Below, one piece after another: positions 30,015 through 60,826 of a stretch of DNA of 64,000 nucleotides (its first letter is position 1; every line of letters begins with the position of its first letter). The translations under genes and the position numbers were made by a program. Location: positions 64,001 through 128,000 of the IMG/VR virus record IMGVR_UViG_3300028048_000052; one strand, written 5' to 3'. The notes beneath the pieces are model-generated. The model was not told the DNA's origin. It did no database searches and was given only the letters and a program-made list of their open reading frames with translations. The stretch comes from a virus. Taxonomy: Duplodnaviria; Caudoviricetes.

Positions 30015-31190
30015 ATGAAAAATAAATTAAGTTTATTTACATTAATAGGACTTTTAGCAGGCATTTTATTTGGGCTACTTGCTCAACAACAATATATTTC
30101 AACGATTGCACCAATAGGTACATTATATATAACAATATTAAAATATATGGCTGTGCCGGTTGTATTTACAAGTATCACCGTTTCTGTATTTAATTCAATT
30201 AAATTAAATAACAAATTAATACCAAAAACATTATTAACCTTTGCTTTAATGTTTATTGCTACATTCCTATTATCCTCTGCAATAGTAATGGTAATTAATC
30301 CAGCAAACAGGTTTGTCCTTGAATCTACAGAATGGAATGGATCTACCGCAAATCTTAATATTGGAAATATGTTATTAAATCTATTACCAAAAAACTTAAA
30401 TAAATTTCTAACGGGAGGATATTTATTCTTTACAATTTTAATTTCATTCGTAATGGGGCTTGTTTGTAATTACACCAACTATGGTCAAAATATTATAAAT
30501 GTTATAAGCAAAGTAAGAGATTTCCTTATTAAAATATTAGATTATTTTATGTGGGTATCTCCAATCGCTGTTTTTGCGCTTATTAGTAACACAGTGGCGA
30601 CCTATGGACCAATAGTAGTAGGCGTTGGTACAAAATATATTTTAACAGCATATATTTGCACAATTATTGCTTTGGTTGTTATAATGATTTTACCAATTCT
30701 CTTGATTTGTAAAATATCACCAAAAACTTTTATTAAAAAAGTTTATAAGATTTGGTTAATCACATTAAGCACATGCTCAAGCGCGGCTACTTTACCATAT
30801 ACCATCAAGACTTGTAAAGAAGAATTCAATATACCAGAAGAGGTAACTGATGTAGTAGTACCGCTTGGCACAACAATTCATATGTGCGGCGGAGCAGTTT
30901 CATTCGCTCTATTGGGGTTGTTCTGTGCGAAATTATTTAGCATTGAAATAACATTCACAAAGTATCTAATGATGTTATTTTTCGCAATGATGATTAATAT
31001 GGCCGCGCCCGGTATTCCTAACGGCGGAGTTGTTATTGGAGCAACTTATTTACAGCTTTTGGGGATTCCGTTAGACTTTATAGGCTTTTATAGTGGTATT
31101 TATAAACTACTTGATATGGTTTATACTTCACTAAATGTCACTGATGATATAGCCTCAAATGTAATAATTAATTATTTAAGGGAGAATTAA
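30015..31190 (+). CDS. dicarboxylate/amino acid:cation symporter (DAACS family)
   Basis: STCSSAATLP, PLGTTIHMCG, APGIP; multiple transmembrane segments. Confidence 0.9.
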   Translation: MKNKLSLFTLIGLLAGILFGLLAQQQYISTIAPIGTLYITILKYMAVPVVFTSITVSVFNSIKLNNKLIPKTLLTFALMFIATFLLSSAIVMVINPANRFVLESTEWNGSTANLNIGNMLLNLLPKNLNKFLTGGYLFFTILISFVMGLVCNYTNYGQNIINVISKVRDFLIKILDYFMWVSPIAVFALISNTVATYGPIVVGVGTKYILTAYICTIIALVVIMILPILLICKISPKTFIKKVYKIWLITLSTCSSAATLPYTIKTCKEEFNIPEEVTDVVVPLGTTIHMCGGAVSFALLGLFCAKLFSIEITFTKYLMMLFFAMMINMAAPGIPNGGVVIGATYLQLLGIPLDFIGFYSGIYKLLDMVYTSLNVTDDIASNVIINYLREN

Positions 31191-31267
31191 TTCTCCCTTT
31201 ATTTTTTTATATTGACAAAATTTGACTTTTATGATATAATTATATTGTAAAAGGAGAAAAATAAGAT

Positions 31268-31456
31268 ATGGAATATGACTTACCCAGTAAATGTCCGTTT
31301 AATAATAATCAAATTTGCGAATTAATAAATTGCCCCTGTAACTACACCAAACTTTGTAACATTATTGTAGAAAATATAAAAAAAGAAGATATAAAGAACG
31401 AGGAAAAAAGCATATCAGAACAAGTGATAGAAACATTAACAGAATGGTTTAAATAA
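31268..31456 (+). CDS. small Cys-rich hypothetical protein
   Basis: AAGGAG RBS downstream of a sigmaA-like promoter. Confidence 0.55.
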   Translation: MEYDLPSKCPFNNNQICELINCPCNYTKLCNIIVENIKKEDIKNEEKSISEQVIETLTEWFK

Positions 31457-31457
31457 A

Positions 31458-31868
31458 ATGAAATTTGTATTTAAAAACAATAATTGGTGGGAAGTTGAAG
31501 GAGATAAAATATATAATTCCAAAGGTGGTTATCAAAAATTAGATAAAAAAGCCACTGTAATAGAAGCAGATGATTGGAGTAGTTTAGACTGGTCTTGTCT
31601 TCTTGATAGAAAAAGTTCTATCGGGTGGGTTGCTCCAGATGGAACTTGGTTTGGTTGTTCTTCAAAAAATCAAGAAAAAGTGGCTATATTATTTTTAGGA
31701 GCGCCAGAAGAGGAATTAACTCAAAATGGCTGGGTAAAAGTATTTAGAAGTTGGTTTACTTATACAAGAGATTGGTATACAAAAGGAATGGTAGTTAATA
31801 AAGCTCAAGCAGATACATTATTTAAAAAGGGCTTTATTGTTGATGATTTTCAAATAATGGAGAAATAA
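31458..31868 (+). CDS. hypothetical protein
   Basis: GWVAPDGTWFGC; nine Trp, all TGG. Confidence 0.65.
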   Translation: MKFVFKNNNWWEVEGDKIYNSKGGYQKLDKKATVIEADDWSSLDWSCLLDRKSSIGWVAPDGTWFGCSSKNQEKVAILFLGAPEEELTQNGWVKVFRSWFTYTRDWYTKGMVVNKAQADTLFKKGFIVDDFQIMEK

Positions 31869-32363
31869 ATGACGAAAGAATTTAAAAAAATGAGTTGCCT
31901 ATTAAGTGCGCTGTTGTGCTTTACTGCATGTGGCTCTTTTGTTCATGCAAAATCTCAAAAAGAAAATAATACCAATATTCCTTCTACTGGAGAACCAATA
32001 CTTGTAATAGATCAAGAGGACACTTATGATGAACAAAACATTGAAGAAATTGACACTGACCCAACAGTTGAAGGAACTTATGATCTCTTCACCATCACTT
32101 ACTATTGCGGGTGCGATATTTGTAATGGCAGTTGGGGTGCTTATGACGCCCTTGGTGAGCCCCTTGCAGTTGGCACTGTTGCTTGTAACGTGCTTCCTCT
32201 CGGTACTATTGTTTATATTGATGGTAATAAATACGTGGTCAGAGATCGGCTCTCCTCTATTTATGATGGTGAAAACAGGATTGATATCTATGTTGAAAGC
32301 CATGATCTCGCTAATGAGTTGGGCATTAGATATGATGTGGAGGTATTTATTGAGAACTATTAG
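31869..32363 (+). CDS. secreted 3D-domain protein
   Basis: Signal-like N-terminus; TYYCGCDIC...LPLGT...DR...RIDIY. Confidence 0.75.
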   Translation: MTKEFKKMSCLLSALLCFTACGSFVHAKSQKENNTNIPSTGEPILVIDQEDTYDEQNIEEIDTDPTVEGTYDLFTITYYCGCDICNGSWGAYDALGEPLAVGTVACNVLPLGTIVYIDGNKYVVRDRLSSIYDGENRIDIYVESHDLANELGIRYDVEVFIENY

Positions 32364-32377
32364 AAAGATGAAAGCAG

Positions 32378-33229
32378 ATGAGTAATAATTTAAAAAATGA
32401 TAATAGCGGAGATAGCTTAAAAATATTTTTAAACGAAATTAAAAATATTCCTCTATTAACTCAAGAAGAAGAAATTGAACTTGGGAAACAAATAAAGCAA
32501 AAAAATAAAGAGGCAATTGATAAATTAATTGTCTCTAATTTGCGTTTAGTGGTTAATATAGCTAAAAAATATGTGGGAATAGGAATTCCATTAATTGATT
32601 TAATTCAAGAAGGAACAATTGGGTTACAAATCGCCGCGGAGCACTATGATTATACACTTGATTTTAAATTTTCTACCTATGCAACATATTGGATAAAACA
32701 GAGAATTATGAAATCAATTGTTGATAATTCTAAAACAATTCGTTTACCGGCAAATGTTATTAACGAAATGGCTCAATTAAATAAAAGAAAAGAAGAGTTT
32801 ATTGAAGAATACGGTAGAGAACCTGATTTTTCAGAGCTATTAGAAATGACAAATATGAGTTCTGACAAATTGTTAGATATTATGCAAGTTCAGCAAGGCG
32901 CTATATCTCTTGATGCGTTAATACCAGATAGCGATAATGATTCTACTTTTGGTGATTATATAAAAGATAATCACATAATTAGCCCAGAAGATTATAGCAG
33001 GATAATGGATAAAAAAGAGGTAATTTTAGATGTTTTAAGTACGCTTGATGAACGGGAAAAAGATATTTTAATAAAGCGTTTTGGACTTGATAATGGAGTT
33101 CAAAAGTCATTAGAACAGGTTGGCGATTTAGTTGGGTTAACGAGAGAAAGGGTACGCCAGATAGAGATTTCTGCTTTAACAAAATTAAGAAATCCAATAA
33201 GAGCAAATATACTGGCTGAGTATATGTAA
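32378..33229 (+). CDS. RpoD-like sigma70 factor lacking region 1.1
   Basis: NLRLVVNIAKKY, DLIQEG, KFSTYATYWI, LTRERVRQIE. Confidence 0.92.
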   Translation: MSNNLKNDNSGDSLKIFLNEIKNIPLLTQEEEIELGKQIKQKNKEAIDKLIVSNLRLVVNIAKKYVGIGIPLIDLIQEGTIGLQIAAEHYDYTLDFKFSTYATYWIKQRIMKSIVDNSKTIRLPANVINEMAQLNKRKEEFIEEYGREPDFSELLEMTNMSSDKLLDIMQVQQGAISLDALIPDSDNDSTFGDYIKDNHIISPEDYSRIMDKKEVILDVLSTLDEREKDILIKRFGLDNGVQKSLEQVGDLVGLTRERVRQIEISALTKLRNPIRANILAEYM

Positions 33230-33978
33230 TGAAAAATATATTTATAGATTTTGAAGCAACCCAATATACGCAAGAAATTATTTCAATTGGGGCAACAGCA
33301 AAAAGTGGAGAAGAATTTTATTCATTGGTAAAGCCAAAGCATAAAATAGGAAATTTTGTATCTGGTTTAACCGGTATTAAAGAAGAAGATTTGGAAAATG
33401 CGCCAACGGCTGATATAGTTTTTTCTAATTTTTTCTCTTGGTTACAAGAGATAAATAAAGATAATAAAAAAATAAAATTTATTTGTTATGGAAATTGCGA
33501 TTTGTTATTTGCATCAAATACGTTAAAAAATTTAGACAATTCAATGACAGCACAAATGGCATTATCATTAATTATTTCAAATATAGTTGATTATGCCGAC
33601 TATGTGAAATCATATTTTGGATTATCAAAATATGTATCATTATTAAAAGTGGCTCAATATTATTCAGGAGAAGATTTAAATCAAGATCATAACGCATTAA
33701 ACGATGCCAAATTATTAAGATTTATATATGAAAAAATTCAAAATGGAGTGCAATTAGTAGATAATCCTTTTGAAGAATATATGCAACGAATTGAAGTTTA
33801 TGACACTGAAGATAATTTAGTTGAAACTTTTTATGGAATGGCGCAAGCAACGAAATGGATAATTGAAATAAACCATATTCCACAAAATGCGTATAAGAAA
33901 AGAATAAAAAATAAAATAATTTCCGCTTCACAGCAGAAACAGACCTATTGCGGATTTAAATGGGTAATTACTGATTAA
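33229..33978 (+). CDS. DEDDh 3'-5' exonuclease with C-terminal NUMOD-like domain
   Basis: IDFEAT, LTGI, HNALNDA. Confidence 0.82.
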   Translation: MKNIFIDFEATQYTQEIISIGATAKSGEEFYSLVKPKHKIGNFVSGLTGIKEEDLENAPTADIVFSNFFSWLQEINKDNKKIKFICYGNCDLLFASNTLKNLDNSMTAQMALSLIISNIVDYADYVKSYFGLSKYVSLLKVAQYYSGEDLNQDHNALNDAKLLRFIYEKIQNGVQLVDNPFEEYMQRIEVYDTEDNLVETFYGMAQATKWIIEINHIPQNAYKKRIKNKIISASQQKQTYCGFKWVITD

Positions 33979-34055
33979 GGGTTAGATAAAAAATCTAACC
34001 CTTTACTTTTTTTAAAAAATATGATATAATATATATAGTAAAAGGAGTAAAGAAA

Positions 34056-35384
34056 ATGTATTGTGGTTATATTGTAAAAATTGATAAGTTAAGAAAACAT
34101 ACCAATGCAGACAGATTACAAATTGCCACGGTTTTTGGTAATGACGTTTCTGTTGGGTTGGATGTTAAATTAGGAGATATTTTAATTTATTTCCCAACAG
34201 ATGGACAGTTATCTACCGAATATTGTGAATATAATAATCTTCTCCGGAAAAGAGATGCAAACGGTGATAATATTGGTGGTTATCTTGATCCAAGCAAGCG
34301 CAATGTAAAAGCAATTAAATTACGTGGTGAAAAATCTGACGGATTATTAATGCCACTTTCTTCACTTGATTATTTTGAACACGATGAATTAAATGTCGGC
34401 GATAAAATTACTGTATTAAATGGGCATGAAATTTGCACAAAATATATTCCAAGAACTAACTCATCTGGGCCAAGAAACCTTGGAAATAAAACGAGAAAAA
34501 GAAAAGCGCCAATTTCTCCATTGTTTATTGAGCACGCTGACACAGAACAACTCGCATATAATCTTAATGTATTTAAACCGGGGGATGAGATTGAGATTAC
34601 TTTAAAAATGCATGGCACATCTCAAAGAACTGGATATTTGCCTGTATTTAAAAAATTTAAACGATCATTATTAGATATTATTTTACGAAGACCGGGTAAA
34701 CCAATTTATGATTGGGGTTATGTTACGGGTACACGCAGAGTTGTCTTAGATACATATGATGGCGGATATTATGGTGGTAATCAATTTCGTGAACAACATG
34801 CAAAATTCTTTGAGGGGAAACTCTTAAAAGGCGAAGAAGTTTTTTACGAGGTAGTTGGTTATATTGATGAAAATAATCCTATTATGGGCAAGGGCAATAA
34901 TAAGAAAATTAATGATAAAGATTTTCTTAAAAAGTATGGGGACACAACTGTTTTTTCTTATGGATGTAACCCCGGAGAAAGCAAAGCCTATGTTTATCGT
35001 ATGACAATGACAAACGAAGATGGTGATATTGTAGAATATACGCCTGATTTTATGCGATATCGTTGTGAACAGATGGGAGCAAATACTGTTCCTATGTTTA
35101 CTAAATTTATTATTCCAGATATTGATTATCAAGATGCTACAACCGGAGAACAACTTTGTGTCGGAGATTATGTAAAAGATATTGCGGAAGAATACTATGA
35201 CGGGACAGATCCAATCGGCAGAACTCATATTCGAGAGGGGGTTGTTGTTAGAATTGTAAATAGACCAAAATTTTGTGCATACAAACATAAGAATTTCTTT
35301 TTTAAAGTTCTTGAAGGATTAATTAAAGAAGATGCAACTGCACCAGATGTTGAAGAAGCTCAGGAGGTATTAGATGAGAACTAA
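34056..35384 (+). CDS. RNA ligase (Rnl2/DRB0094-like) with N-terminal OB domain
   Basis: HTNADRLQ, KLRGEKSDG, TLKMHGTS, REGVVVR. Confidence 0.8.
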   Translation: MYCGYIVKIDKLRKHTNADRLQIATVFGNDVSVGLDVKLGDILIYFPTDGQLSTEYCEYNNLLRKRDANGDNIGGYLDPSKRNVKAIKLRGEKSDGLLMPLSSLDYFEHDELNVGDKITVLNGHEICTKYIPRTNSSGPRNLGNKTRKRKAPISPLFIEHADTEQLAYNLNVFKPGDEIEITLKMHGTSQRTGYLPVFKKFKRSLLDIILRRPGKPIYDWGYVTGTRRVVLDTYDGGYYGGNQFREQHAKFFEGKLLKGEEVFYEVVGYIDENNPIMGKGNNKKINDKDFLKKYGDTTVFSYGCNPGESKAYVYRMTMTNEDGDIVEYTPDFMRYRCEQMGANTVPMFTKFIIPDIDYQDATTGEQLCVGDYVKDIAEEYYDGTDPIGRTHIREGVVVRIVNRPKFCAYKHKNFFFKVLEGLIKEDATAPDVEEAQEVLDEN

Positions 35385-35610
35385 GGCTGAACGGAGAAAA
35401 TCTACTTATAAACACATTAGGAAAAACTATAAAGAAAAATCAATTTATAGTAAATTTCATGGAAAAGAAGAAGAACAACCACATCGTCTTTATAAAGGAA
35501 ATAATTTCACAAAGAAGCAAGGACGTCTTACTATAAGACCTAAAACAAAAAAAGATTTAGTAGATGAAATTACAGAAAGAGAAATGCTAAACGAGGACGA
35601 AATTGATTAA
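35374..35610 (+). CDS. basic hypothetical protein
   Basis: GGAGG RBS; overlaps the previous stop. Confidence 0.6.
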   Translation: MRTKAERRKSTYKHIRKNYKEKSIYSKFHGKEEEQPHRLYKGNNFTKKQGRLTIRPKTKKDLVDEITEREMLNEDEID

Positions 35611-35759
35611 ATCAAAATAACCTATTTTAATTTATAGTTAGAGTAGGGGATGCTGTCCATTGAGCGTCAGGCTTTCTTGCGCTTGATTTTGATATAAAGG
35701 GGGTAGTTTAAACCGATTAAACTGCCCCCACTTTTTTATTTTTTAGGGAGGAATTTGAT

Positions 35760-35870
35760 ATGGATCAAAAAATTGCTTTATATATCCTTGGGGGATTACT
35801 TTGCGCAATTGGCGTTGTTCGTCTTTTATTAATTTTTACTACAAAAGCAAAAGCAAAAGCAAAAAAATAG
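35760..35870 (+). CDS. 36-aa membrane peptide
   Basis: GGAGG RBS; one hydrophobic helix and a basic tail. Confidence 0.45.
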   Translation: MDQKIALYILGGLLCAIGVVRLLLIFTTKAKAKAKK

Positions 35871-35920
35871 CATTTTATAAAAATTATGAAGATAATTATT
35901 ATAGAAAGGATATAATAATT

Positions 35921-36178
35921 ATGGAAGAAAATTTAAAAATTGATGAGTTAAAAGACGAGATAAATGATATAGACATAAAAATTGTATTACTTTTAAATCA
36001 ACGAGCAGATTTTAGTACAGAATTAAACAATTTAAAAAAAGAGTTAGGAATTGATTTTTATGATAAAATGGAAGAAATTGAAATTATGGAATCATTAGAA
36101 GAAATGTCTAACTACAATAATATGATAAATACAATTTATCCATCTATATTAAAGTATTGTAGAAGCCTCTATGAATAG
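35921..36178 (+). CDS. chorismate mutase type II-like protein
   Basis: IDELKDEINDIDIKIVLLLNQR...KKELG; AAGGA RBS before ATG 35921. Confidence 0.6.
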   Translation: MEENLKIDELKDEINDIDIKIVLLLNQRADFSTELNNLKKELGIDFYDKMEEIEIMESLEEMSNYNNMINTIYPSILKYCRSLYE

Positions 36179-36264
36179 AGGCTTATTTTTTTTATATGGG
36201 GACAATTTATAACGATTAGATGATCGTTATTTTTATATAAAATGAGAATAAGGAGGTGCATAAT

Positions 36265-36735
36265 ATGTTAGATATGATGACAGGTTTAGCTGTATTATTA
36301 TTTACATATGGCTTCACAATCTCCTATCATGTAATGGGCTCCACTAAATTTTATATGATTAAAAAATTTCAATGGAGAAAAGCATTATTGGGTATCTATC
36401 AAGAATTAGGATATTTTTTATTTTTATTTCTAATATTTATGTTACCTGTTTTTATAGATTTAGATACTCTTGGAGTAGATTTATCTTTAGAAAAAATTGT
36501 TACAGTCGTTTTAGTTTTCCCTTTAGTTGCATCAATTAAAAATTGCTATGAAAAATCAATTGAACTTAAAAATATTGATATATCAGAACTTGATCAATTA
36601 ATTGATGGCGAAGAAGGAATTGTATTAAAAACCGATAGTAACAAAGAATTAAATGTAAATGTTACGTTGAAAGGAGATATTGACTATGGCAAGAAAGAGC
36701 AATCAACAGCCAAGCCTAAAAAGCCAAAAGGCTAA
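36265..36735 (+). CDS. probable holin
   Basis: Three hydrophobic segments; upstream of the endolysin. Confidence 0.6.
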   Translation: MLDMMTGLAVLLFTYGFTISYHVMGSTKFYMIKKFQWRKALLGIYQELGYFLFLFLIFMLPVFIDLDTLGVDLSLEKIVTVVLVFPLVASIKNCYEKSIELKNIDISELDQLIDGEEGIVLKTDSNKELNVNVTLKGDIDYGKKEQSTAKPKKPKG

Positions 36736-36871
36736 ATCCACAAAACTTACCATTGAACAAAAGAAAGAAATGGTTAATATTTTAAAAGACTTAAAAGAAG
36801 AACAAACTACTTTTAATGCTGACCCAATAAGTGAATTAGTAGCTGATGGAGAAGTTGAAAATGCAGTTTAA
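36686..36871 (+). CDS. hypothetical protein in the lysis cassette
   Basis: AAGGAG RBS; overlaps holin and endolysin. Confidence 0.55.
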   Translation: MARKSNQQPSLKSQKAKSTKLTIEQKKEMVNILKDLKEEQTTFNADPISELVADGEVENAV

Positions 36872-38054
36872 TATTAGAACAACAAAACCGCAAGCTGGTA
36901 ATAAAAACTATATTAAAACAACTTATGGTGGTTGAAATACTTGTGTTATTGGGAGTCCAACAGATAAAGATTGTAATGTTTTAAGCAATTGCGTTGGATA
37001 TGCAAGTGGAAGATTTAATGAAATTTATAATGAAATTACTGGACACACTGGAAGCCATAAGTGAAATATTCTTAATTGCAATGCTGAAAACTTTATTGAA
37101 AGAGCAGAACAATTAGGATTAAAAATTTCAAAAACGCCAACTCTTGGTGGTATAATGGTATGACAAAAAGGTAGTTTAAATTGGCAAGATGGCGCTGGCC
37201 ATGTTGGTGTTGTTGAAAAAATTATTGACGATAATACCATTTATACAAGCGAAAGTGCATGAGGTGGTAGCGCATTTTATAATTCAACCAGAAGAAACAC
37301 AAATGGTAGATGGGGTATGGGCTCAGCTTATTCTTTTAGAGGCTGTATTGTAAACCCGGCTGTTAAAACCATAAAAGTTGCATCAAATGTTAAAAGAGAT
37401 GAAACAAAAGAGCAGGTTGAAGTATTGGTTCCAGATTTAAATGTTAGAATGGAACCAAGCACAAAAGCAACACGTATTGGATTTGCTAAAAAAGGATATT
37501 ACAATATTTTAAACAAAAAAGTTGCTGAAGGGTATACTTGATTAAATATTGCCGAAGATCAATATATCGCATTTAACAATGAGTGAGAAAAAATTTTGGA
37601 ACCTAAGAAAGAAGAAGAACCGGTAGTGCCAACCCCAACTCCAATTCCAGAACCAATTAAACCAACTTTAAAATTTAAAATTGGCGATCAAGTTGTTATT
37701 TCTGGTAAATTATATGCAAGTTCAAATGCAACTATTGCCACGGCTTCTGTATTAGGAAAAGTGACAAAAATTACGCGAGTCGTCGCTGGTGCAAAACATC
37801 CATATAACACCACAAATGATTTGGGTTGAATGGATGAAAGCTCAATTCAATTCTATAATAACGCAGTACCAAAAGAAACAATTAAGGTTGGAGATAAAGT
37901 AAAAGTATTAAAAAATGTAACATATGATGGTAAAAAATTCTTGGCTTTATTCTCTAAATATGATGTTATTGAAGTTAAAGGCAATAGAATTGTTATTGGT
38001 ATTGGTAAGGTTGTTACCGCGGCGGTTCATAAAGACAATTTAAAGAAGGTATAA
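36861..38054 (+). CDS. endolysin: CHAP, SH3 and two C-terminal cell-wall-binding modules, 397 aa (7 TGA=Trp)
   Basis: NCVGYA, GHVGVVE, SESAW; LNVR...GYTW; Pro-rich linker; three track ORFs in frame. Confidence 0.88.
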
Positions 38055-38056
38055 TT

Positions 38057-38443
38057 ATGAAAGAATTTAAGTTTAAACCCGGAGATGAGGTACTAATTAC
38101 TGGAAAAATTTATCAATCAGCAAATGGCACTTTATATGGTAAAACTTTAAATAAATTTAAAGCAACTATTAAAAAAATTGCTGAAAAAGGAGCGCACCCA
38201 TACGCTATTGAAGGAATGTGGGGTTGATTCGATGAAAAAGAATTAAGTCCGTATGTTGCGCCACCAGAAATTTCTGTTGGCGATAAAGTGAAATTAATTA
38301 AAAATGAAACATACAATCATAAAAAAATAGTTCTTTCCCCGTATATTGATTATCAAGTAAATAATATTGAAGATAATAAAGTTTATGTATCATTCCGTGA
38401 TACAAATTTTATTGTTGATATTTATAACCTAAAAAAAATTTAG
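38057..38443 (+). CDS. stand-alone paralog of the endolysin C-terminal modules (1 TGA=Trp)
   Basis: FKFKPGDEVLITGKIY...GAHPY...GWFDE...ISVGDKVKLIKNETY parallels LKFKIGDQVVISGKLY...GAKHPY...GWMDE...IKVGDKVKVLKNVTY. Confidence 0.75.
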
Positions 38444-38446
38444 AAA

Positions 38447-38635: not shown

Positions 38636-38721
38636 GGAAAAACATATTTGCTTTTCCCTATTTTTTTTGACTTTTTCTTATAAAAATGTTATAATTTTAT
38701 TAGAAAGGGTTAAAATAACAT

Positions 38722-41025: not shown

Positions 41026-41027
41026 AG

Positions 41028-49299: not shown

Positions 49300-49341
49300 T
49301 CAAATTATTCCGTTTTTCTTTATAAATAGGAGGAATAAAAA

Positions 49342-51066: not shown

Positions 51067-51078
51067 TATAATAATAAT

Positions 51079-51537: not shown

Positions 51538-52480
51538 TATATATATTAGTTGTGGCGTTGCGTTTGTTATAGGAATTTTATTTGCTTATTTAATTTTAAA
51601 ATCCAAATTAGATCATGTAGTTAAAATTAATGAAGATAATATAAAAAGAAATAAACAAATACAAAATGAGGTCATTTATTGAGAAAAGAAAAAAGAAGAA
51701 CTAAATAGCGAATATATAGATTTAAAATCATCTGCTTCATCTCTTGATGCTGAAATAAAAATAAAATCAGAAACGGCTCAAAATATTATTAATTCAAAAA
51801 TTGAATTAATGAAAGAACAAATGGATAGAAAAGCAGAAGATTTAGCAAATCAATATCAATCTGCTATTGATGATGCAAATTCTCAATATTTAGAAATATT
51901 AGCAGATTTATCCAAAACATCAATCGATACAACGGAATCAATTATTGAATTAGAAAAAAAATTAAAGGAATTAAAATCAAAGCATGATGCAGTAGTTGAA
52001 GATTATAAACGAGCGCAAGAGATGAATAATAAAAAAGATTTCTATCGTTTACAATTAACAGATATTGATTTAAAAGAAATAAAAAAATTGCGTGAGGTTG
52101 AGCCATATTTACGTGATGCGCGTCCACTTAATAAAGTCATTTGAAGTGTTTATTATGAGCACCCATATACTGATTTAACTGGGCGTATTATGGGAAGAGA
52201 AAAAAGAACGGGTATTTATAAACTAACAAATCTTACTAATAATATGGTTTATATAGGACAAGCTGTTAATATTGCAGAAAGATGAAAACAACATATTAAG
52301 TGCGCTATTGGGGCCGATAGTGCGCCTAATAATAAATTGTATCCGGTAATGCGGGCAATTGGCCCAGAAAATTTTACTTTTGAGATTATGGAAGAATGTT
52401 TGCCAGAAGAGTTAAATGAAAGAGAACAATATTGGCAAGATTTCTATAAGGCGAAAGAGTTTGGTTATAGTGTAAGATAG
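51530..52480 (+). CDS. membrane-anchored coiled-coil protein with C-terminal GIY-YIG domain (3 TGA=Trp; start uncertain)
   Basis: N-terminal transmembrane segment; TGIYKLTN...VYIGQAVNIAERWKQH...EREQYW. Confidence 0.75.
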
Positions 52481-52488
52481 GAGAAAAT

Positions 52489-52779
52489 ATGTATAGAGTT
52501 ATCGCCGGCAATGATACCGGAAAAACTAAAAAATTACTAACTGAATGTGGAAGCAATGGTGTATTTGTTTGCGCTCATCCAGAGCGTATTAGTGAAAAAT
52601 GTAGAGCATACAATATTCCATTAGTGAAAGCGATTGGATATGATGATTTTAAATATTTACTTATCGAAGGTGATTTGTATAATGAAAATGATGATAGACC
52701 GATTTATATTGATGAGTTAGAAAAATTTGTAAATTATTGTGTTCCATATTTAGCTGGCTATACATTAACAAACGATTAA
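52489..52779 (+). CDS. small P-loop-like protein
   Basis: GNDTGKTK...IYIDE. Confidence 0.55.
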   Translation: MYRVIAGNDTGKTKKLLTECGSNGVFVCAHPERISEKCRAYNIPLVKAIGYDDFKYLLIEGDLYNENDDRPIYIDELEKFVNYCVPYLAGYTLTND

Positions 52780-52780
52780 T

Positions 52781-54575
52781 ATGAAATTAGAAAATGTAAG
52801 AGTATATAATATTTCAACAGCGTTATTTGGAATGAGAAATCCAAAAAATTCTTGGGATAGAAGAGATACCAAGAGTGGAATTGCAACTTATGATGAAGTT
52901 GTTAAAATGGCTGAAGATAGCGAATTTGATTTAAAAGATATCCTTTTGTATCAAGATGATAATGAAATGTGCGAATATTGTGTTATCGGCCCTAACGATA
53001 TGAAGCTAGCAAAAGTATTAAAAGATGCTGGCACAGAACACCGTAAATATTTAAGACAAATCTTTGTTACAATGGATATTACTGCACCGTTATATTGGTA
53101 GACTTTCTGCCAAAAAATACTTTACCGCTTCATCAGCGGGGTCGCATTAGCGGCTAACGGGGAAGCCTAAACTGAAAAGCATGGTAATCCCGTGGGAAAT
53201 ATAAAAAATAATAAATTAAATGTGTCAAAATATATTAATTCTTATTATATGTTTCTTATATATAATAGGAGGATTAAATAATGAAACAAACAAGAAATTG
53301 TGGTCCACGAAAAGATTTAAGTGGAAAAAAATTTGGTAAATTAACTGCAATATATTATGTTCCAAAAGGAAAATGACATTGCAAATGTGATTGTGGAAAT
53401 GAATTAGATGTGGACACAAGAAATTTAAATAGTAATCATACACAAAGCTGTGGCTGCTTACAAAAAGAAAATGTAAGAAAAAATGCTATTGATATGACCG
53501 GGTATGAAAATAATGGTATTAAAGTTATATCAAAAGCCGAATCTGATAAAAATGGTTACGCTCATTGAAATTGTGAATGTAAAATATGTGGAAGAAAATT
53601 TACTTCTGCTGGTTCAGCTATTAGACAAGGTCTTGTTCAAAGTTGTGGATGCGTTCATTCATTAAACGAGCAATTAATAACAAAAATGTTATTAGAAAAT
53701 AATATAGATTTTGCTAGAGAATATACTTTTGGAGATTTAAAAGGAGTTAATGGTGGGGCATTAAGATTTGATTTTGCGATATTTAAAGATAAAAAATTAT
53801 CTCATTTAATTGAATTTAATGGAAAACAACATTACGAAAAATCAAAAGGTAGTTGAGAAAAAGAATTTGACACATTACAAAAAAATGATAAAATAAAAAA
53901 AGAATATTGTGAAAAAAATAATATTAAATTAATTATCATAAAATATGACCAACAATATTCTTTAAAAGATTTATTATAATTATAAACCTGTAGAGACTAT
54001 CCCGGGTGAGACTGGGAGTACGGCTTCTATTGATACGAAGTTGGAAATGGTATTCTCTTTAAATAAAGAGTAAAAGATAGTCCAATCTATTATGAAAATA
54101 ATAGATAATTGGGAAAGAATTTGATACCTATAAAATCGGTACAACATCCAATAGCCAAAGTACGATGCATAAGATGGCGGCTAAACCAATTACATTAGAT
54201 TGCTTTGAGATTGGTGATTATGAAAAAGATTTAGTTTTTGAAGAAAGCACAGCAGGTGAGCATTCTTGGGATTATCAGTGTAAAGTGGACCACGTTATAG
54301 GTGGAGAAAGCGAAGGCACTTATTATTGGGATAAATGCTACATTAAATTCTTGGAAATGTTGCGTTTAAAATATCTTGAAACAAAAGATATGCGCTACTG
54401 GAAAGAGTTAATTAGATGGCTTCCAGAAAGCTGGTTACAGACAAGAACAATTACTTTAGATTATGAAGTATTGAGTAGAATGTACCAACAGAGAAAAGAC
54501 CATAAATTAAGTGAGTGGCATTGGTTCTGTGACCGGATTGCTGATATGCCATATGCAAAAGACTTGATTTTATAA
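52781..54575 (+). CDS. thyX: ThyX-like flavin-dependent thymidylate synthase split by a group I intron (exons 52781-53099 and 54112-54575; 260 aa)
   Basis: GMRNP, EHRKYLRQI, spliced APLYW-WKEFDTYK, STMHK, LPESWLQTR, RKDHKLSEW. Confidence 0.72.
53100..54111 (+). mobile_element. group I intron carrying an endonuclease ORF
   Basis: P1 TTGGT/GCCAA with U.G; AACGGGGAA...AATCCCGTG; AGAGACTA...GATAGTCC; terminal G at 54111. Confidence 0.88.
53281..53979 (+). CDS. intron-encoded endonuclease with Cys-rich repeats and a Vsr/DUF559-like nuclease domain (3 TGA=Trp)
   Basis: DLSGKKFGKL, WHCKCDCG, SCGC twice, LRFDF...LIEFNGKQHY. Confidence 0.82.
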
Positions 54576-54623
54576 AAAAAATATGATATAATTATTATAG
54601 TATAGGGGGAATTTATATAGGAA

Positions 54624-54980
54624 ATGAAAAAGGATTTTTTAGAATTTTTAGACAACCTGATGGCAGCTGCGCCAGAACAGACAGCGAAGTACATGACGGA
54701 TAATGCAAAAACTTATGTAGAAGCTTTGCGTATGGCGTCAGAGGAGGAAAAGGAGAAGCCAGAAATGACTGATAACGGTAAGTTAATTCTTGGCTACATG
54801 CAGACGTCTAATATTAATGCTCTTACGGCAAAAAGAATTTCCGAAGGAATTTTGGTTAGTTCAAGAGGAGTTTCTGGGGCAATGAGAAAATTAGTAACAG
54901 ATGGCTACTGTGAAAAAGTGGGCACCAGCCCGTCCGTTTATATTTTGACAGAAAAAGGAAAAAATTATAAAATTAATTAA
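54624..54980 (+). CDS. winged-helix transcriptional regulator
   Basis: SSRGVSGAMRKLVTDGYCEK...YILTEKG. Confidence 0.75.
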   Translation: MKKDFLEFLDNLMAAAPEQTAKYMTDNAKTYVEALRMASEEEKEKPEMTDNGKLILGYMQTSNINALTAKRISEGILVSSRGVSGAMRKLVTDGYCEKVGTSPSVYILTEKGKNYKIN

Positions 54981-55007
54981 GTATTAAGAAAGAGGAATTT
55001 AGTAAAA

Positions 55008-55979
55008 ATGAAGAAAATGATTAATGCAACACACGTGGAAGGTTTGTTATACGACCACGCTTTAGAGGAAAAGGTGTCAGGTGCAAATTCTAAAAATCCC
55101 GGAACAAAATTTATCGCAGGAACTGTTGATGTAGCAACAGATAATGACGGTATTAATATTGTTTCAGTACATTATACCTATGTAACTCCAGTAACAGCAA
55201 CAGGAAAAGAAAATGCAACCTATACAACTTTGTTAAACATTATTAATGGAACCTATAAGACTGTTGTTAGAGACGGTTCTGATAATGCAACAAAGATTAG
55301 AATTGATTCTGCTATTGGTCTGAATGAATTTTATTCAGATAGAGATGGCACAGAAACACTTGTAAGTGTAAAGAGAAATGAGGGTGGATTTGTCCATACT
55401 AATGGAAACTTTACAGACGATGAAACATTAAGAAATACATTTGATGTTGATATTGTTATTACAGGTGTACGTCATGTTGATGGAGATGCTGATAAGGGAA
55501 CTGATGATAAGAGTATTGTTAAGGGAGCAATTTTTGATTTCAGAAACAGTTTATTACCAGTTGAATTTTCAGTAACAAATCCAGCAGCGATGAACTATTT
55601 TGAAGGATTAGATGCATCAAATAAAAATCCGATTTTCACAAGAGTAAGAGGTCGTCAGGTTTCTGAAACTATTACTCGTCAGATTACAGAAGAAGGTGCG
55701 TTTGGTGAACCGAGTGTAAGAGAAGTAAAAACCACTAGAAAAGATTTCGTTATTACTTGGGCGAAAGCTGAACCATATCTCTTTGATGATGAATCAACTT
55801 TAACAGCAGAGGAATTTAAGAAAGCGATCGCCGATAGAGAAATGGCGTTAGCTGAACTTAAGAGGAGAAACGACGAATACAAAGCAAATAGAAAAGCAGG
55901 TAATGGTATGCCATTTGGTGATACAAGTTCTACTACCACCAATGTTGCCGCGCCAGCAATGGGCTCATTTGATTTTTAG
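55008..55979 (+). CDS. probable single-stranded DNA-binding protein
   Basis: OB-like body with FDF C-terminus; upstream of the Sak4-like ATPase. Confidence 0.6.
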   Translation: MKKMINATHVEGLLYDHALEEKVSGANSKNPGTKFIAGTVDVATDNDGINIVSVHYTYVTPVTATGKENATYTTLLNIINGTYKTVVRDGSDNATKIRIDSAIGLNEFYSDRDGTETLVSVKRNEGGFVHTNGNFTDDETLRNTFDVDIVITGVRHVDGDADKGTDDKSIVKGAIFDFRNSLLPVEFSVTNPAAMNYFEGLDASNKNPIFTRVRGRQVSETITRQITEEGAFGEPSVREVKTTRKDFVITWAKAEPYLFDDESTLTAEEFKKAIADREMALAELKRRNDEYKANRKAGNGMPFGDTSSTTTNVAAPAMGSFDF

Positions 55980-55991
55980 GAGGTAAATTAA

Positions 55992-56984
55992 ATGTTAGAT
56001 ATTTTAAATTTACAACCTAATAAAGTTAGTCGTGATATGCGTGGATATTCGGTGTTGATGTATGGTACGCCAAAATCTGGTAAAACCACTACAGCATCTA
56101 AGTTTCCAAATGCATTACTTGTAGCTTTTGAAAAGGGCTATTCTGCTATTCCTAATGTATTAGCAGCGCCTGTTAACAGCTGGAATGAATTTAGACAGTT
56201 GCTTAAACAGTTAGAAAAACCAGAAGCAAAAGCAAAGTATTCTACTATTGTTGTAGATACAGCTGATATTGCTTATGATTATTGTGTTAAATATATTTGC
56301 GCCAAAGCAAGTGACGCAAAAAATGATTATGAAAATATTGGAGATATCCCCTATGGTAAGGGATATAAAATGGCTGAAACCGAATTTGATGAGTGCTTAA
56401 GAAAGATTCTTCAGATGGATTATGGTCTTGTGCTGATTAGTCATGCTACCGATAAAACTTTCACAGATACAAATGGTAATGAATATAACCAGATCGTGCC
56501 TACTCTTGACAATAGAGCAAGAAAGATTTGTGAAAGAACATGCGATATTATTGGTTATACCCATAGCGAGTACAATGCAGAGGGAGGCACTACCACTTAT
56601 ATGGAAATGCGTGGTACCCCAAGATATGTTGCCGGCTCAAGATTTAAATATACGCCAGATAGAATTGAATTAAGTTATGAAAATTTGTTAAATGCTATTA
56701 ATCATTCAATTGATGAAGAAGCAAAGAATTTAGGTGATCAAGTTTTAACAAATGAAAAATCAAATGTTCATCAGCAAGTTGAAAAAGAATATGACTTTGA
56801 TGCTATGATGGCAGAATTCCAAAACATTGTTGGTGCTTTAATGTCAAAGAACCAGAACAATGCGAAGAAGATTACTGCTATTGCTGATAAGTATCTTGGC
56901 AAGGGCAAGAAGGTTGGAGATTGCACTCCTACAAATGCCCCACAGCTTGACTTAATTCTTATGGAATTAAGAGAATTAGTATAA
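55992..56984 (+). CDS. Sak4-like (AAA_24) ATPase/annealase
   Basis: YGTPKSGKTT, IVVDT, LISH, CDIIGY. Confidence 0.8.
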   Translation: MLDILNLQPNKVSRDMRGYSVLMYGTPKSGKTTTASKFPNALLVAFEKGYSAIPNVLAAPVNSWNEFRQLLKQLEKPEAKAKYSTIVVDTADIAYDYCVKYICAKASDAKNDYENIGDIPYGKGYKMAETEFDECLRKILQMDYGLVLISHATDKTFTDTNGNEYNQIVPTLDNRARKICERTCDIIGYTHSEYNAEGGTTTYMEMRGTPRYVAGSRFKYTPDRIELSYENLLNAINHSIDEEAKNLGDQVLTNEKSNVHQQVEKEYDFDAMMAEFQNIVGALMSKNQNNAKKITAIADKYLGKGKKVGDCTPTNAPQLDLILMELRELV

Positions 56985-56987
56985 AAC

Positions 56988-57023
56988 AGTCAACCCTGAG
57001 GAAACTTGGGGTTGATTTTTTTT
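56988..57023 (+). terminator. intrinsic terminator overlapping the next promoter
   Basis: AGTCAACCCTGAG-GAAA-CTTGGGGTTGATT followed by a T run. Confidence 0.7.
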
Positions 57024-57050
57024 ATATTTTATGGTATAATATAGGTGTAA

Positions 57051-57566
57051 ATGGCTAAGTTAATGGTTAAATGCCCCGTTTGTGGGAAAAGTTTTGATAG
57101 AAATAGTACGCCATATCATCAAGAGGGTAGAAGATATTTACACATGGAGTGTTGGGCAAGAAGAGAAGCCTCAAAAACTCAAGATGATAAGGATAGAGAG
57201 GCCCTTGAAGAATATATCAAGGAACTTTTTAAATTAACGGTCATTCCGATTAAAATTGAAAAACAAATAAATAGTTTTCATAACGAATATGGTTATACTT
57301 ATACCGGGATTAAAAAAGCATTAGTATATCAATTTGAAGTTAAAAAAGGTGATATTAAACAAGCAAATGGTGGTATAGGTATTGTGCCATATGTTTATGA
57401 ACAAGCAAGAAATTATTATTATCAAATATGGGTAGCTCAACAACAAAATAATGATAAAATAATTAATGACTATATTCCTAGTGAGGTAAAAATAAAAATT
57501 AAAAATCCTCAAAAACAACCGAAAAGAAGAAAATTGTTTGAATTTTTAGATAAGGAGGGAGAATAA
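57051..57566 (+). CDS. Zn-finger protein, possible helicase loader
   Basis: CPVC...HMEC; GIGIVPYVY; coupled to the helicase. Confidence 0.6.
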   Translation: MAKLMVKCPVCGKSFDRNSTPYHQEGRRYLHMECWARREASKTQDDKDREALEEYIKELFKLTVIPIKIEKQINSFHNEYGYTYTGIKKALVYQFEVKKGDIKQANGGIGIVPYVYEQARNYYYQIWVAQQQNNDKIINDYIPSEVKIKIKNPQKQPKRRKLFEFLDKEGE

Positions 57567-59101
57567 TGGCAACAAGTAAATATGTTGATCCGACCGCAAT
57601 AATGCAAGTAGTTGGATGTGTGTATAATAATCCCTCTTTATTAGATGCAACAGATAAATACACAATAACAGCTGACGATTTTGCAGATGAATTTCATAGA
57701 ATTGCTTTTGGCTCAATTTATAAAATTCATGAATTAGGCGCAAAGAAAATTACATTAGAAAATATTATGGATTTCTTATCAAGTCGTCCCAAGAGTGAAG
57801 CTATCTTCAAACAACAAAAAGGTGAAGAATGGTTATTAAAAGTGGCTGAAAACGCAATCCCGGCTTCATTTGATTATTATTATAATAGATTAAAAAAGTT
57901 TAGTTTATTAAGAGCTTATGATAACTATGGAATTGATGTAAAATTCATTTATGACCCAGATAATATTCTTGATACAAAGAAAAAAGAATTACAAGAAGAG
58001 CAACTCGATAATTCAACATTGAACCAACTCGCTCAAAAAGTTGATGATATGATTGAGGGTATCCGGGCACAATATGTTGATGATGTATATCAAGAAGCAG
58101 TTCAAGCAAGCGATGGGCTTGAGGATTTGATTAAAAGTTTTAAAGAACGTCCAGAAGTCGGTGTACCAATGTATGGCCAATTAATCAATACAGTAACACG
58201 TGGCGCAAGGTTAGGAAAATTCTATTTACGTTCTGCGCCTACTGGTGTTGGTAAATCAAGAACGATGATAGCAGATGCTTGTTATATTGCTTGTAATGAG
58301 ATTTATAATGATACTATTGGAATGTGGGTTAAAAATGGAATTGTTCAACCGACTGTTTATATAACAACAGAACAAGATAAAAGTGAAATTCAAACCATGA
58401 TGCTTGCATTCTTAGCAAGCGTAAATGAAGAGCATATTTTAAACGGGAGATATGAAGGAGATGAAGAAGAAAGAATTTATTATGCTTTAAAGGTATTACA
58501 AAATTCTCCTTTATATATAGTTGAACTACCAGATTTTTCTTTACAAGATATTGAAGATATAATTAAAAAGAATATAAGAGAACATGATGTTAAATTTGTG
58601 TTTCATGATTATATTCATACAAGTATTAAAATTTTAGAAGAAATTACTCGTCGTTCTGGTGGAGTAAAATTAAGAGAAGATAATATCTTATTTATGTTAT
58701 CAACAAGATTAAAAGATATTTGTAATCAGTATGGAGTATTTATTTTATCAAGTACCCAGCTAAATGCGGATTATCAAGTGTCTGAAACGCCGGATCAAAA
58801 TTTATTAAGAGGAGCAAAAGCGATTGCTGATAAAATAGATTTTGGGTGTATATTGTTACCAGTTAAACAAGAAGATATTGAATCATTAGCAAAAGTTTTA
58901 CAAAGAAGTAATTTTGAAAAACCAACTCATAAATTATCAATTTATAAAAACCGAAGAGGTAGGTATAATGGAATATATTTATGGTGTAAAGGTGATTTGG
59001 GCACTTGTAGAGTTAATCCAATTTTTGCAACAAATTGGAGTTATGAGTTAATACAAATGGAAGATTTTCAAATTGAAGTAGAAAGTGATGGTGCGTTTTA
59101 A
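57566..59101 (+). CDS. dnaB: DnaB-like replicative helicase
   Basis: APTGVGKS, FHDYI, STQLN, IADKID, KNRRG. Confidence 0.88.
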   Translation: MATSKYVDPTAIMQVVGCVYNNPSLLDATDKYTITADDFADEFHRIAFGSIYKIHELGAKKITLENIMDFLSSRPKSEAIFKQQKGEEWLLKVAENAIPASFDYYYNRLKKFSLLRAYDNYGIDVKFIYDPDNILDTKKKELQEEQLDNSTLNQLAQKVDDMIEGIRAQYVDDVYQEAVQASDGLEDLIKSFKERPEVGVPMYGQLINTVTRGARLGKFYLRSAPTGVGKSRTMIADACYIACNEIYNDTIGMWVKNGIVQPTVYITTEQDKSEIQTMMLAFLASVNEEHILNGRYEGDEEERIYYALKVLQNSPLYIVELPDFSLQDIEDIIKKNIREHDVKFVFHDYIHTSIKILEEITRRSGGVKLREDNILFMLSTRLKDICNQYGVFILSSTQLNADYQVSETPDQNLLRGAKAIADKIDFGCILLPVKQEDIESLAKVLQRSNFEKPTHKLSIYKNRRGRYNGIYLWCKGDLGTCRVNPIFATNWSYELIQMEDFQIEVESDGAF

Positions 59102-59271
59102 TGGAAAATAAGATATGGATTGAAATTAATGTGTCTATTGCTGGTAACGGCGTTAGTGATGAGTATATGTTAAATAATATGGAAGATTATGGTTTGTATG
59201 ATAATATTGATGACGCTATTGGCGCATTAATAGATATACAAAATATTATGGAGGAAGAAAATGAAATATAA
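59101..59271 (+). CDS. small acidic protein
   Basis: 56 codons, coupled to both neighbours. Confidence 0.5.
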   Translation: MENKIWIEINVSIAGNGVSDEYMLNNMEDYGLYDNIDDAIGALIDIQNIMEEENEI

Positions 59272-59716
59272 AATTTTACAACTTGACGCAAACGGAAGAA
59301 TTAGCTTCACTAAAGAAGAATTAGAGAAGTTACTTGATGAAGTTTATAACAATGGATATGAAGATGGTAGAAAAACTTGCCAATATACGTATCCATATTG
59401 GTATTGGAAATCATATCTTACTACAACCCCAAATATTGTTTATACAGATAAAACAACAAATCCAACACTTCCAAATGACTATATTTATGTTGGTGATGAT
59501 CCAAATACGCTGGGAACAGTAACGACTGGAACGCCATTGAAAAATAATGGAAATACTGTCTGCACTGATATTCCAGATGATTCATCTCATTTTACACATG
59601 CAACTACAACAAACACAACCACAACCGCAAATACCGATTTTGCACCGCACTGGACAGCTGAAAGAGTTGTATACGGAACTAAAAATACATCAACAGATAA
59701 AAAGTATACAGGATAA
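59261..59716 (+). CDS. hypothetical protein with Thr-rich C-terminus
   Basis: GGAGG RBS. Confidence 0.6.
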   Translation: MKYKILQLDANGRISFTKEELEKLLDEVYNNGYEDGRKTCQYTYPYWYWKSYLTTTPNIVYTDKTTNPTLPNDYIYVGDDPNTLGTVTTGTPLKNNGNTVCTDIPDDSSHFTHATTTNTTTTANTDFAPHWTAERVVYGTKNTSTDKKYTG

Positions 59717-59719
59717 AAT

Positions 59720-60826
59720 ATGGCAGGATATGATAAATTAGAAGTAAGAGAAAAATTAGAAATAGAAGATATTTATAGTTTACTTCTTGAGTTTGGAGGT
59801 GAACCAGAATATTCTTCTTTTGGCATTATTTCAAGAACGATTTGTCATAATCCTGCGCATGAAGGAAGTCGCAAATTATACTATTATGAAAATAGTGATT
59901 TGTTTAGGTGTTATACTGATTGTGGCGATTCGTTTGACATATTTGAATTAGTCCAAAAGGTTAGTAGAATCCAATGGCATAAAGAAACAGATTTAAATGG
60001 GGCAATATATTATGTTGCGGTTAAATTTGGAATTGCGCCGAATTTTGGAACTGATGATGATAACGTAGTTAATGCCGAAGATTGGGAAGCATTTGAAAAA
60101 TATTCTCATATTAAAGATATTGAAATAAAAGATTTAAAAGTAACTCTTGAAGAATATGATGATAGTATTTTAGATAAATTGAGATATGATTTAAAATTAA
60201 CCCCATGGTTAAAAGAGCATATGACGCAAGAGGTTCTTGACAGCGCAAGGATTGGCTATTGGCTCGGTGGAGACCAGATAACAATTCCACATTATGATAA
60301 AGATGGTAGATTTGTTGGATTGCGTGGTAGAACCATGTGTAAAGATGAAGCCATGGCTTATGGAAAATATCGTCCTATAAAAATTATGGACACTCAATAT
60401 AATCATGCATTAAGTATGAATTTATATAATCTTAATTTTAGTAAAGATAATATAAAGAAAATGGGAAAAGCAATTATCTTTGAAAGTGAGAAAAGTTGTC
60501 TTATTTATAGAAGTTATTTTGGAAAAGATGCTGATATAAGTGTAGCGTGTTGTGGTAGTAATATCTCAGCATATCAAATTCAAATGCTTTTGGATGCTGG
60601 CGCAAAAGAAATTATAGTTGCATTTGATCGTGATTTTGAGGTCAAAGGCGATAAAACATATATGGCTCAAATTAATAAATATAAGAGGATATATAATAAA
60701 TATCATATTTATTGCAATATTTCATTTATTTTTGATAAAAATAATTTATTACCAATAAAAGCGAGTCCAATAGATAATGGTAAAGAAATATTTTTACAAT
60801 TATTTAATGAAAGAATCTTTTTATAG
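59720..60826 (+). CDS. dnaG: DNA primase
   Basis: TICHN...CYTDC zinc domain; GLRGR; TOPRIM FESEKS...AFDRD. Confidence 0.85.
   Translation: MAGYDKLEVREKLEIEDIYSLLLEFGGEPEYSSFGIISRTICHNPAHEGSRKLYYYENSDLFRCYTDCGDSFDIFELVQKVSRIQWHKETDLNGAIYYVAVKFGIAPNFGTDDDNVVNAEDWEAFEKYSHIKDIEIKDLKVTLEEYDDSILDKLRYDLKLTPWLKEHMTQEVLDSARIGYWLGGDQITIPHYDKDGRFVGLRGRTMCKDEAMAYGKYRPIKIMDTQYNHALSMNLYNLNFSKDNIKKMGKAIIFESEKSCLIYRSYFGKDADISVACCGSNISAYQIQMLLDAGAKEIIVAFDRDFEVKGDKTYMAQINKYKRIYNKYHIYCNISFIFDKNNLLPIKASPIDNGKEIFLQLFNERIFL

Follow-up and report, generated by a model that had tools for sequence, protein, structure and literature searches.

Partition of TGA and TGG tryptophan codons among gene classes in a recoded phage genome

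In stop-codon-recoded phages that infect standard-code hosts, 26–71% of genes are recoded, and in phages of natively recoded hosts the recoded stop stands in about 90% of genes (Borges et al., bioRxiv 10.1101/2021.08.26.457843); the idea that recoding times gene expression, including TGA-rich homing endonucleases inside early genes, has already been published there. Here we describe a 64,000-nt stretch of phage DNA (the window; Duplodnaviria, Caudoviricetes), bases 64001–128000 of one 175,154-bp virus record (IMGVR_UViG_3300028048_000052), in which tryptophan codons are partitioned between TGA-free genes and TGA-bearing ones. This partition is real, is not an artefact of the G+C content at third codon positions (GC3) and is maintained by selection. 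Coordinates prefixed w are window positions; genome coordinates are record positions.

The closest described systems are Agate and other stop-codon-recoded gut phages. With these the present phage shares a large genome, TGA read as tryptophan, an endonuclease that is inserted in an early gene and preferentially TGA-coded, and close relatives that differ in code, as well as, probably, an animal-gut, Firmicutes-type host with the standard code and a suppressor tRNA. It differs in length, being about 173 kb compared with the ~127-kb lineage of Borges et al., in a candidate suppressor tRNA with a long extra arm and, apparently, a group-I-like intron, and in adding an early tRNA-Trp(CCA) and a transfer-messenger RNA (tmRNA) with neither a release factor nor a tryptophanyl-tRNA synthetase (TrpRS) gene. 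TAG-recoded crAss-like and Lak phages (code 15) likewise have a late-biased recoded stop, with lysis genes among the most recoded, but there TAG encodes glutamine and the hosts are Bacteroidota. Phages of natively recoded hosts (code 25 Absconditabacteria; mycoplasma, spiroplasma) also read in-frame TGA as an amino acid, but with TGA in about 90% of their genes no partition is expected, whereas here the partition is sharp and the share of TGA-bearing genes (34%) lies inside the range of recoded phages on standard-code hosts. Intron-encoded endonucleases of phage T4, such as I-TevI, are transcribed early within an early gene and made only late; T4 delays I-TevI by hiding its ribosome-binding site in early transcripts, not by in-frame stops. 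The likeness to the present phage lies in a homing endonuclease inside an early gene with a late product, and the difference lies in the mechanism. The stop-codon-recoding study by Borges and colleagues was reportedly published later in Nature Microbiology. To that pattern the present genome adds one well-controlled case, and its extra value lies in an equal-GC3 comparison, a turnover test of TGG retention and a promoter marker of early genes that is independent of annotation.

TGA and TGG across the genome

The record has 33% G+C, and its first 2,093 bp recur at its end, giving a genome of about 173 kb. With TGA as sense, fragments fuse into long co-directional genes: code 11 gives 285 genes at a coding density of 0.82, and code 4 gives 222 at 0.91. 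Genes were called with a codon-usage score that is blind to TGA and TGG, and both codons were then counted per gene; counts are written throughout as TGA:TGG, in-frame codons with TGA read as tryptophan. That reading comes from comparison of the CHAP-domain endolysin with its homologues. All nine of its tryptophan positions are kept in two close relatives (L021 and L024), in which four to five of this phage's TGAs are TGG, and among 18 homologues W30, W106, W156, W247 and W328 are invariant, with four of the five encoded by TGA here. Because endolysin TGAs are matched by TGG at the same conserved positions of close relatives, TGA is read as tryptophan in this phage.

Among 167 confident genes, with 167 TGA and 472 TGG codons in total, TGA occurs in only 56 (34%), and 26 of the 63 genes with at least four tryptophan codons are TGA-free, compared with about 10 expected. 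Heterogeneity between genes (χ2 of 299, about 141 expected) was reached by none of 5,000 shuffles. Within w30015–60826, all 18 TGAs fall in 5 of 39 genes, namely the endolysin (7:2), its neighbour (1:1) and three endonuclease genes (5:1, 2:1 and 3:0), and the other 34 genes together count 0:79. The features concerned are the following.

w31212–60826, plus strand: replication and nucleotide-metabolism block, with no TGA beyond the endolysin, its neighbour and three endonuclease genes
w36846–38054, plus strand: CHAP-domain endolysin (Pfam CHAP), 7:2
w38057–38443, plus strand: 128-aa gene 3′ of the endolysin, 1:1, with no family match; orthologues in L021 and L024 count 0:2 and 2:1
w48169–51066, plus strand: split NAD-dependent DNA ligase (ligA), with the adenylation and OB part at w48169–49299 (0:7) and the HhH and BRCT part at w50218–51066 (0:0)
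w49342–49944, plus strand: GIY-YIG endonuclease gene (Pfam GIY-YIG) between the ligA halves, 5:1
w51809–52480, plus strand: GIY-YIG gene, 2:1, whose syntenic homologues are the most heavily recoded genes of relatives
w52781–54575, plus strand: split, tryptophan-rich PHROG 6721 gene, with pieces at w52781–53101 (0:2) and w54165–54575 (0:7)
w53281–53979, plus strand: HNH-like homing endonuclease gene (PHROG HNH or intron-encoded nuclease), 3:0, which splits the PHROG 6721 gene
w60838–61578, plus strand: second HNH-like endonuclease gene, 3:1, just outside w30015–60826

Pfam and PHROG matches across this and neighbouring stretches identify a formate–tetrahydrofolate ligase (fhs), a full sigma-70-type factor, an RNase T-like exonuclease, an RNA ligase, RNase H, GyrB, GyrA, the two halves of the NAD-dependent ligase, AAA_24, DnaB, a Toprim primase, RecJ, the CHAP endolysin and a papain-family peptidase. 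The block at w31212–60826 contains the sigma-70-type factor, exonuclease, RNA ligase, fhs, RNase H, gyrB, gyrA, ligA, AAA_24, DnaB and primase. On the minus strand, a virion module wraps the record ends; most virion proteins are unnamed by Pfam and PHROG, and 'structural' here means portal, tape-measure, tail and virion-protein matches together with position.

A first-pass annotation, made from the letters and open reading frames (ORFs), had proposed that TGA is partitioned by gene class and that this forms a translational timing switch. Its counts were reproduced for the endolysin, a C1 peptidase (4:1, outside w30015–60826), the ligase-splitting endonuclease and the HNH-like gene, for the TGG-only gyrB (0:6), gyrA (0:7), RNase H (0:6) and w31458–31868 (0:9), and for fhs, sigma, RNA ligase, ligA, DnaB and primase, which have no TGA. 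Its label 'thyX' for the gene split by the HNH-like endonuclease must be withdrawn: Pfam, a PDB sequence search and a six-frame Thy1 scan gave no Thy1/ThyX domain in the genome, and the gene belongs to PHROG 6721, a family with no assigned function, whose two ORF pieces hold nine TGG codons rather than the ten tryptophans claimed for the 'exons'. Its label 'intron' is unconfirmed: Rfam finds no group I intron (E ≤ 0.01) around split ligA or the split PHROG 6721 gene. The PHROG 6721 gene is undivided in relatives L009 and L019 (242–274 aa).

Composition, codon cost and selection

The equal-GC3 comparison sets the replication block, taken without its endonucleases and endolysin unit (4:135), against the minus-strand virion module (63:136; Fisher p = 1.5e-12). 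GC3 is 0.211 in both, and the A-ending share of Lys, Glu and Gln codons is 0.81 in both. Recoded stops are thus frequent in the virion module and the endolysin and rare in the replication block, and the same holds in relatives. Within the GC3 band 0.16–0.26, the mean TGA share per gene is 0.12 in one class and 0.40 in the other (p = 1.7e-4). Beside GC3, the class effect gives a likelihood-ratio test (LRT) χ2 of 54.6 (p = 1.5e-13), and beside GC3 and a codon-adaptation score a χ2 of 71.8, so the genome-wide class test survives both controls.

These results bear on the explanation that TGA-rich genes are simply AT-richer, or were acquired from TGA-using donors, with expression irrelevant. GC3 does correlate with TGA share (rho −0.41 genome-wide) and is an independent predictor (LRT p = 3e-10); the endonucleases and a modification island at w21391–31190 have GC3 of 0.12 and 0.14, L021 and L024 lack the island, endonucleases are mobile, and distant relatives have ligA in one piece (652–666 aa). 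However, the tenfold difference persists at equal GC3, and the GC3 slope predicts an odds change of about 3-fold for the endonucleases, where the observed change is about 180-fold. Relative L013 has an endonuclease between gyrB and gyrA that counts 8:0 at GC3 0.13, whereas the flanking gyrB and gyrA count 0:9 at GC3 0.12. Further, the endolysin, sigma-like, terminase-like and portal genes are vertical and syntenic, yet swap TGG and TGA. GC3 matters but does not explain the partition; GC3, which the first-pass annotation had named as a refuting explanation, is not upheld as one, and composition or foreign origin as sole cause, already largely refuted, is very improbable.

A second explanation makes TGA a slow or leaky tryptophan codon, avoided wherever yield matters, with timing irrelevant. 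Among non-early genes TGA use is very uneven (χ2 of 135 against 65), and the share of TGA correlates negatively with both the codon-adaptation score (rho −0.50) and GC3 (rho −0.59); putative major virion proteins count 0:5 and 0:6, a 2,295-aa virion-module protein counts 1:33, and the score term is significant beside class (χ2 of 25.2). Such a cost may well act among late genes, but as the whole account we judge it unlikely: low-abundance replication proteins (primase, RecJ, small ORFs) are TGA-free like gyrase, the class term (χ2 of 71.8) is much stronger than the score term, promoter-proximal early genes are nearly devoid of TGA (see below), and tryptophan codons of replication genes have stayed TGG through extensive synonymous turnover.

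That turnover was measured against relative L024 (about 90% amino acid identity). Of 170 conserved Lys, Glu and Gln positions at which one phage or both have a codon ending in G, 114 differ in A or G. By contrast, all 38 conserved tryptophan codons of 13 TGA-free replication-block genes are TGG in both phages, whereas 8 of 15 tryptophan codons differ across three TGA-bearing genes, the endolysin among them. Because A/G synonymous sites are near saturation and yet 38 of 38 TGG codons are kept, TGG-to-TGA changes have been purged in the TGA-free genes and tolerated in the TGA-bearing ones.

Promoters, candidate suppressor tRNA and probable host

Early genes can also be marked by their promoters. 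The genome contains about 45 near-perfect TTGACA-17-TGnTATAAT promoters, clustered at genome 23–61 kb and recurring at unit heads in the replication block. Together, the 22 genes that immediately follow consensus host-type promoters count 4:76 (p = 4.6e-7), and some of those four TGAs lie at codon 2 or at the very end of a gene. The endolysin unit is bounded by terminators and lacks a consensus host-type promoter of its own. The relevant signals in the window are the following.

w31212–31240, plus strand: perfect sigma-A promoter opening the replication block
w36163–36184, plus strand: terminator-like hairpin 5′ of the endolysin unit
w38631–38695, plus strand: hairpin followed by a sigma-A promoter close to consensus (TTGACT-17-TATAAT with TG), from which TGA-free genes resume once the endolysin unit has ended
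w4055–4168, plus strand: tRNA-Trp(CCA), at w4094, directly behind a perfect sigma-A promoter; proposed as an early helper for TGG

A k-mer search for a late-promoter motif gave only host-type promoter and Shine–Dalgarno words.

The phage also carries a candidate suppressor tRNA(UCA) gene (genome 142564–142869, minus strand), split by 210 nt. The spliced RNA of 96 nt has a tRNA fold, the anticodon UCA and a Trp-like acceptor (A1–U72, G73, CCA). A release-factor gene was searched for in the phage genome and none was found, and the phage has no TrpRS gene. The host is probably a member of the Erysipelotrichaceae with the standard code, judging from sequence: the SDF symporter gene at w30015 is 65–72% identical to genes of Erysipelotrichaceae metagenome-assembled genomes from horse and ruminant guts, and the genes at those loci have no in-frame TGA and use TGG only, one of them ending in TGA. 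A code switch thus has its ingredients in the candidate tRNA(UCA) of the phage, a host that probably uses the standard code, and genes without TGA behind host-type promoters. Full-length products of TGA-bearing genes are therefore very improbable before the phage tRNA can be used.

We consider it likely that this is a TGA-recoded phage of a standard-code host in which early genes are confined to TGG and TGA accumulates in later genes, once the phage tRNA(UCA) is present. In the uninfected state the host ribosome would stop at TGA, so that genes translated immediately after infection, behind host sigma-A promoters and in the replication and nucleotide-metabolism block, would have to spell tryptophan as TGG, and selection would remove each TGG-to-TGA change in them. 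The phage would then provide tRNA(UCA), split by its 210-nt group-I-like intron, and TGA would become readable. AT-biased mutation would pile up TGA in genes translated later, including those for tail and packaging, the endolysin unit, accessory islands and homing endonucleases. Among these later genes TGA may remain a costly codon, probably through competition from host release factor 2 (RF2), so that it is kept out of very long proteins and of virion proteins made in bulk, and genes expressed at a low level drift to the neutral A/G ratio. As a consequence, endolysin and endonucleases would not be full length before the tRNA accumulates. The data show the partition, that it is independent of GC3 and under selection, that TGA is tryptophan and that a tRNA gene is present; the code of the host, when the tRNA is supplied, which genes are early or late, and competition by RF2 are inferred.

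Several points weigh against it. ARAGORN calls the spliced tRNA(UCA) only at a relaxed threshold (-ps95), its 210-nt insert matches Rfam Intron_gpI at E = 4.5e-5 but under the gathering score, and when held to that gathering score Rfam reports no intron and misses the tRNA(UCA) as well. The tRNA(UCA) lies in its own small unit between terminators, with a sigma-A-like promoter that matches at only 10 of 12 positions. The host assignment comes from one symporter gene inside a recently inserted island. Genes are assigned as early or late by what they encode, where they lie and which promoters they match, the class labels are in part a matter of position, and dispersion remains substantial after class and GC3 (Pearson χ2 of 249 on 139 degrees of freedom).

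A different view of the host would make the TGG-only genes a matter of ancestry: the host itself, as a code-4 relative of mycoplasmas, would read TGA as tryptophan, with constant read-through. Erysipelotrichales are relatives of the Mollicutes, and an early phage tRNA-Trp(CCA) would aid TGG-rich genes in a host poor at reading TGG. We regard this as extremely improbable, however, since the nearest bacterial loci have no in-frame TGA and include one TGA stop, the phage has its own tRNA(UCA), same-clade relatives use TAG recoding or none, TGA stands in only 34% of genes, and selection keeps TGG in early genes.

A more elaborate version of early TGG confinement would wire the code switch into the regulatory cascade instead of leaving it a passive constraint, with one RNA-splicing event gating late transcription, lysis and endonuclease activity. 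The TGA-free sigma-70-type factor (w32378–33229) and the early tRNA-Trp(CCA) would start the programme; splicing of tRNA(UCA) would open TGA, and only then would a second, sigma-like protein be made. A sigma-factor-like gene (genome 22150–23211, minus strand; L039:3151–4212; PHROG 5767, E = 6e-40, no Pfam match) heads the packaging and virion operon and counts 6:2 here and 3:5 in relative L041. This putative late regulator would itself depend on TGA read-through. We hold such wiring to be distinctly unlikely.

Outside the window, at genome 23269–34377 (L002:3269–14377), lies a dense array of perfect TTGACA-17-TGnTATAAT promoters, with spacing down to 100–150 bp (for example at genome 33010, 33102, 33208, 33365 and 33471). 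The stretch has a higher G+C content (0.38–0.47) and few convincing ORFs, and the array could serve very small early genes or small RNAs, or act as an RNA-polymerase sink. In addition, in a few early-region ORFs the only TGA stands 2–11 codons before TAA or TAG (genome 35887–36309, 38598–38894 and 50307–50819; L002, L003); such a near-terminal TGA may be where translation of an early gene really ends, with the stop shortly after it as a back-up.

The tmRNA (Rfam 81.6 bits) adjoins the tRNA genes of the phage (w817–1162 and w362–512). The presence of this trans-translation RNA in a phage with late genes full of host stop codons is possibly worth a look.

Endolysin, endonucleases and relatives

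A stronger proposal, raised by the first-pass annotation and by Borges et al., is an evolved translational lock, in which TGA is positively selected in endolysin, nuclease and modification genes to block early toxic products, on top of transcriptional control. Across the genome, endonucleases (17:7) and the endolysin lie above other non-early genes in TGA (Fisher p = 0.002 and p = 0.03). Transcriptional control by itself could not hold back the endonuclease genes, which are embedded in early or middle operons. Three phages share TGA at codons 30 and 73 of the endolysin, and preferential recoding of the same families is reported by Borges et al. (bioRxiv 10.1101/2021.08.26.457843).

The syntenic GIY-YIG family also speaks for the lock, being the most recoded gene in TGA-recoded and TAG-recoded relatives alike. 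A GyrA scan returned 13 related loci at 40–57% identity, of which, by coding density, some are TGA-recoded, two are TAG-recoded (L008 and L011) and several use the standard code. In four TGA-recoded relatives (40–57% identity), replication-block orthologues count 2:106 and GIY-YIG homologues 28:2; homologues of the gene at w51809–52480 count 8:0, 5:0 and 4:0, the gene and its homologues aligning over the C-terminal half only. In TAG-recoded L008, the GIY-YIG family gene has 20 TAG codons against 7 CAA or CAG, and its replication genes hold some TAG too; opposite the TAGs of L008, in 30%-identical orthologues, Gln is the commonest residue.

Nevertheless, the evidence on the other side leaves the lock a tentative proposal that we think somewhat unlikely. 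The TGA share of endonucleases and endolysin (0.71–0.78) stays below the neutral share of A-ending codons among the Lys, Glu and Gln codons of the same genes (0.82–0.92); TGA is not concentrated toward the 5′ end (mean relative position 0.50; TGG, 0.53); endolysin and nuclease-type genes have the lowest GC3 and low codon adaptation; and abundant late proteins and the 2,295-aa protein avoid TGA too. In the relatives that are closer over the endolysin region, L021 and L024 (L024 with about 90% identity in gyrase), the endolysin counts 3:6 and 2:7 against 7:2 here, a range of 2 to 7 TGAs, and every late gene compared is lower in TGA in close relatives (sigma-like 3:5, terminase-like 3:3, portal 0:6). 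The higher TGA content of this phage's late genes looks like ongoing drift in its lineage.

With TGA kept out of late proteins made in abundance, and its counts drifting from one close relative to another, early confinement to TGG, with TGA allowed where the tRNA is already present, fits better than a designed lock, and the two observations together counsel caution about a 'designed timing lock'. Timing is a plausible consequence of recoding, unproven as an adaptation. The timing switch first proposed is partly supported: the partition by gene class is confirmed, but an evolved device to restrain toxic or late products stays unproven. The endonucleases and the modification island, which that proposal placed among such products, count 17:7 and 18:17, and the island is a recent insertion.

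Two further features of the window belong to this set.

w21391–31190, plus strand: radical-SAM/glycosyltransferase island and SDF symporter; the island counts 18:17 with G+C content 0.23–0.27, and the symporter 0:3
w14226–15047, plus strand: papain-family (C1) peptidase (Pfam Peptidase_C1), 4:1

The island with the symporter is a 9.9-kb insertion that is missing between orthologous flanks in L021 and L024, and by this comparison of sequences it is recent relative to those close relatives. Since it contains 18 TGAs although inserted, its donor probably also read TGA. In L021 and L024 other small genes occupy the site, which is a variable hot spot.

Relatives with shared gyrase and ligase synteny (L008, L009, L011, L013, L015–L018, L019 and L020) span three codes, which means that the code has changed more than once in the clade. 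For annotation, this phage's family needs TGA as sense, and relatives need TAG as sense or the standard code, by lineage. Among INPHARED phage records, no match was found by DNA or by capsid-region proteins.

A PHROG amidase match had made w2072–3793 a candidate lysis gene; Pfam gives SH3 and metallophosphatase domains, and the gene is better classed as 'other', with conclusions unaffected. The 2,295-aa virion-module protein (genome 146836–153723, minus strand; L038:2937–9824), whose TGA content is unlike that of its tail-gene neighbours, has a BspA-type leucine-rich repeat near its C terminus. A second accessory cluster, at genome 55457–60852 (L003:15457 onward), encodes a C39-like peptidase (2:0) and a radical-SAM enzyme (5:6) and adjoins a 558-aa gene that lacks annotation (4:0). 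The cluster resembles a peptide-modification cassette and is TGA-rich like the island of the window.

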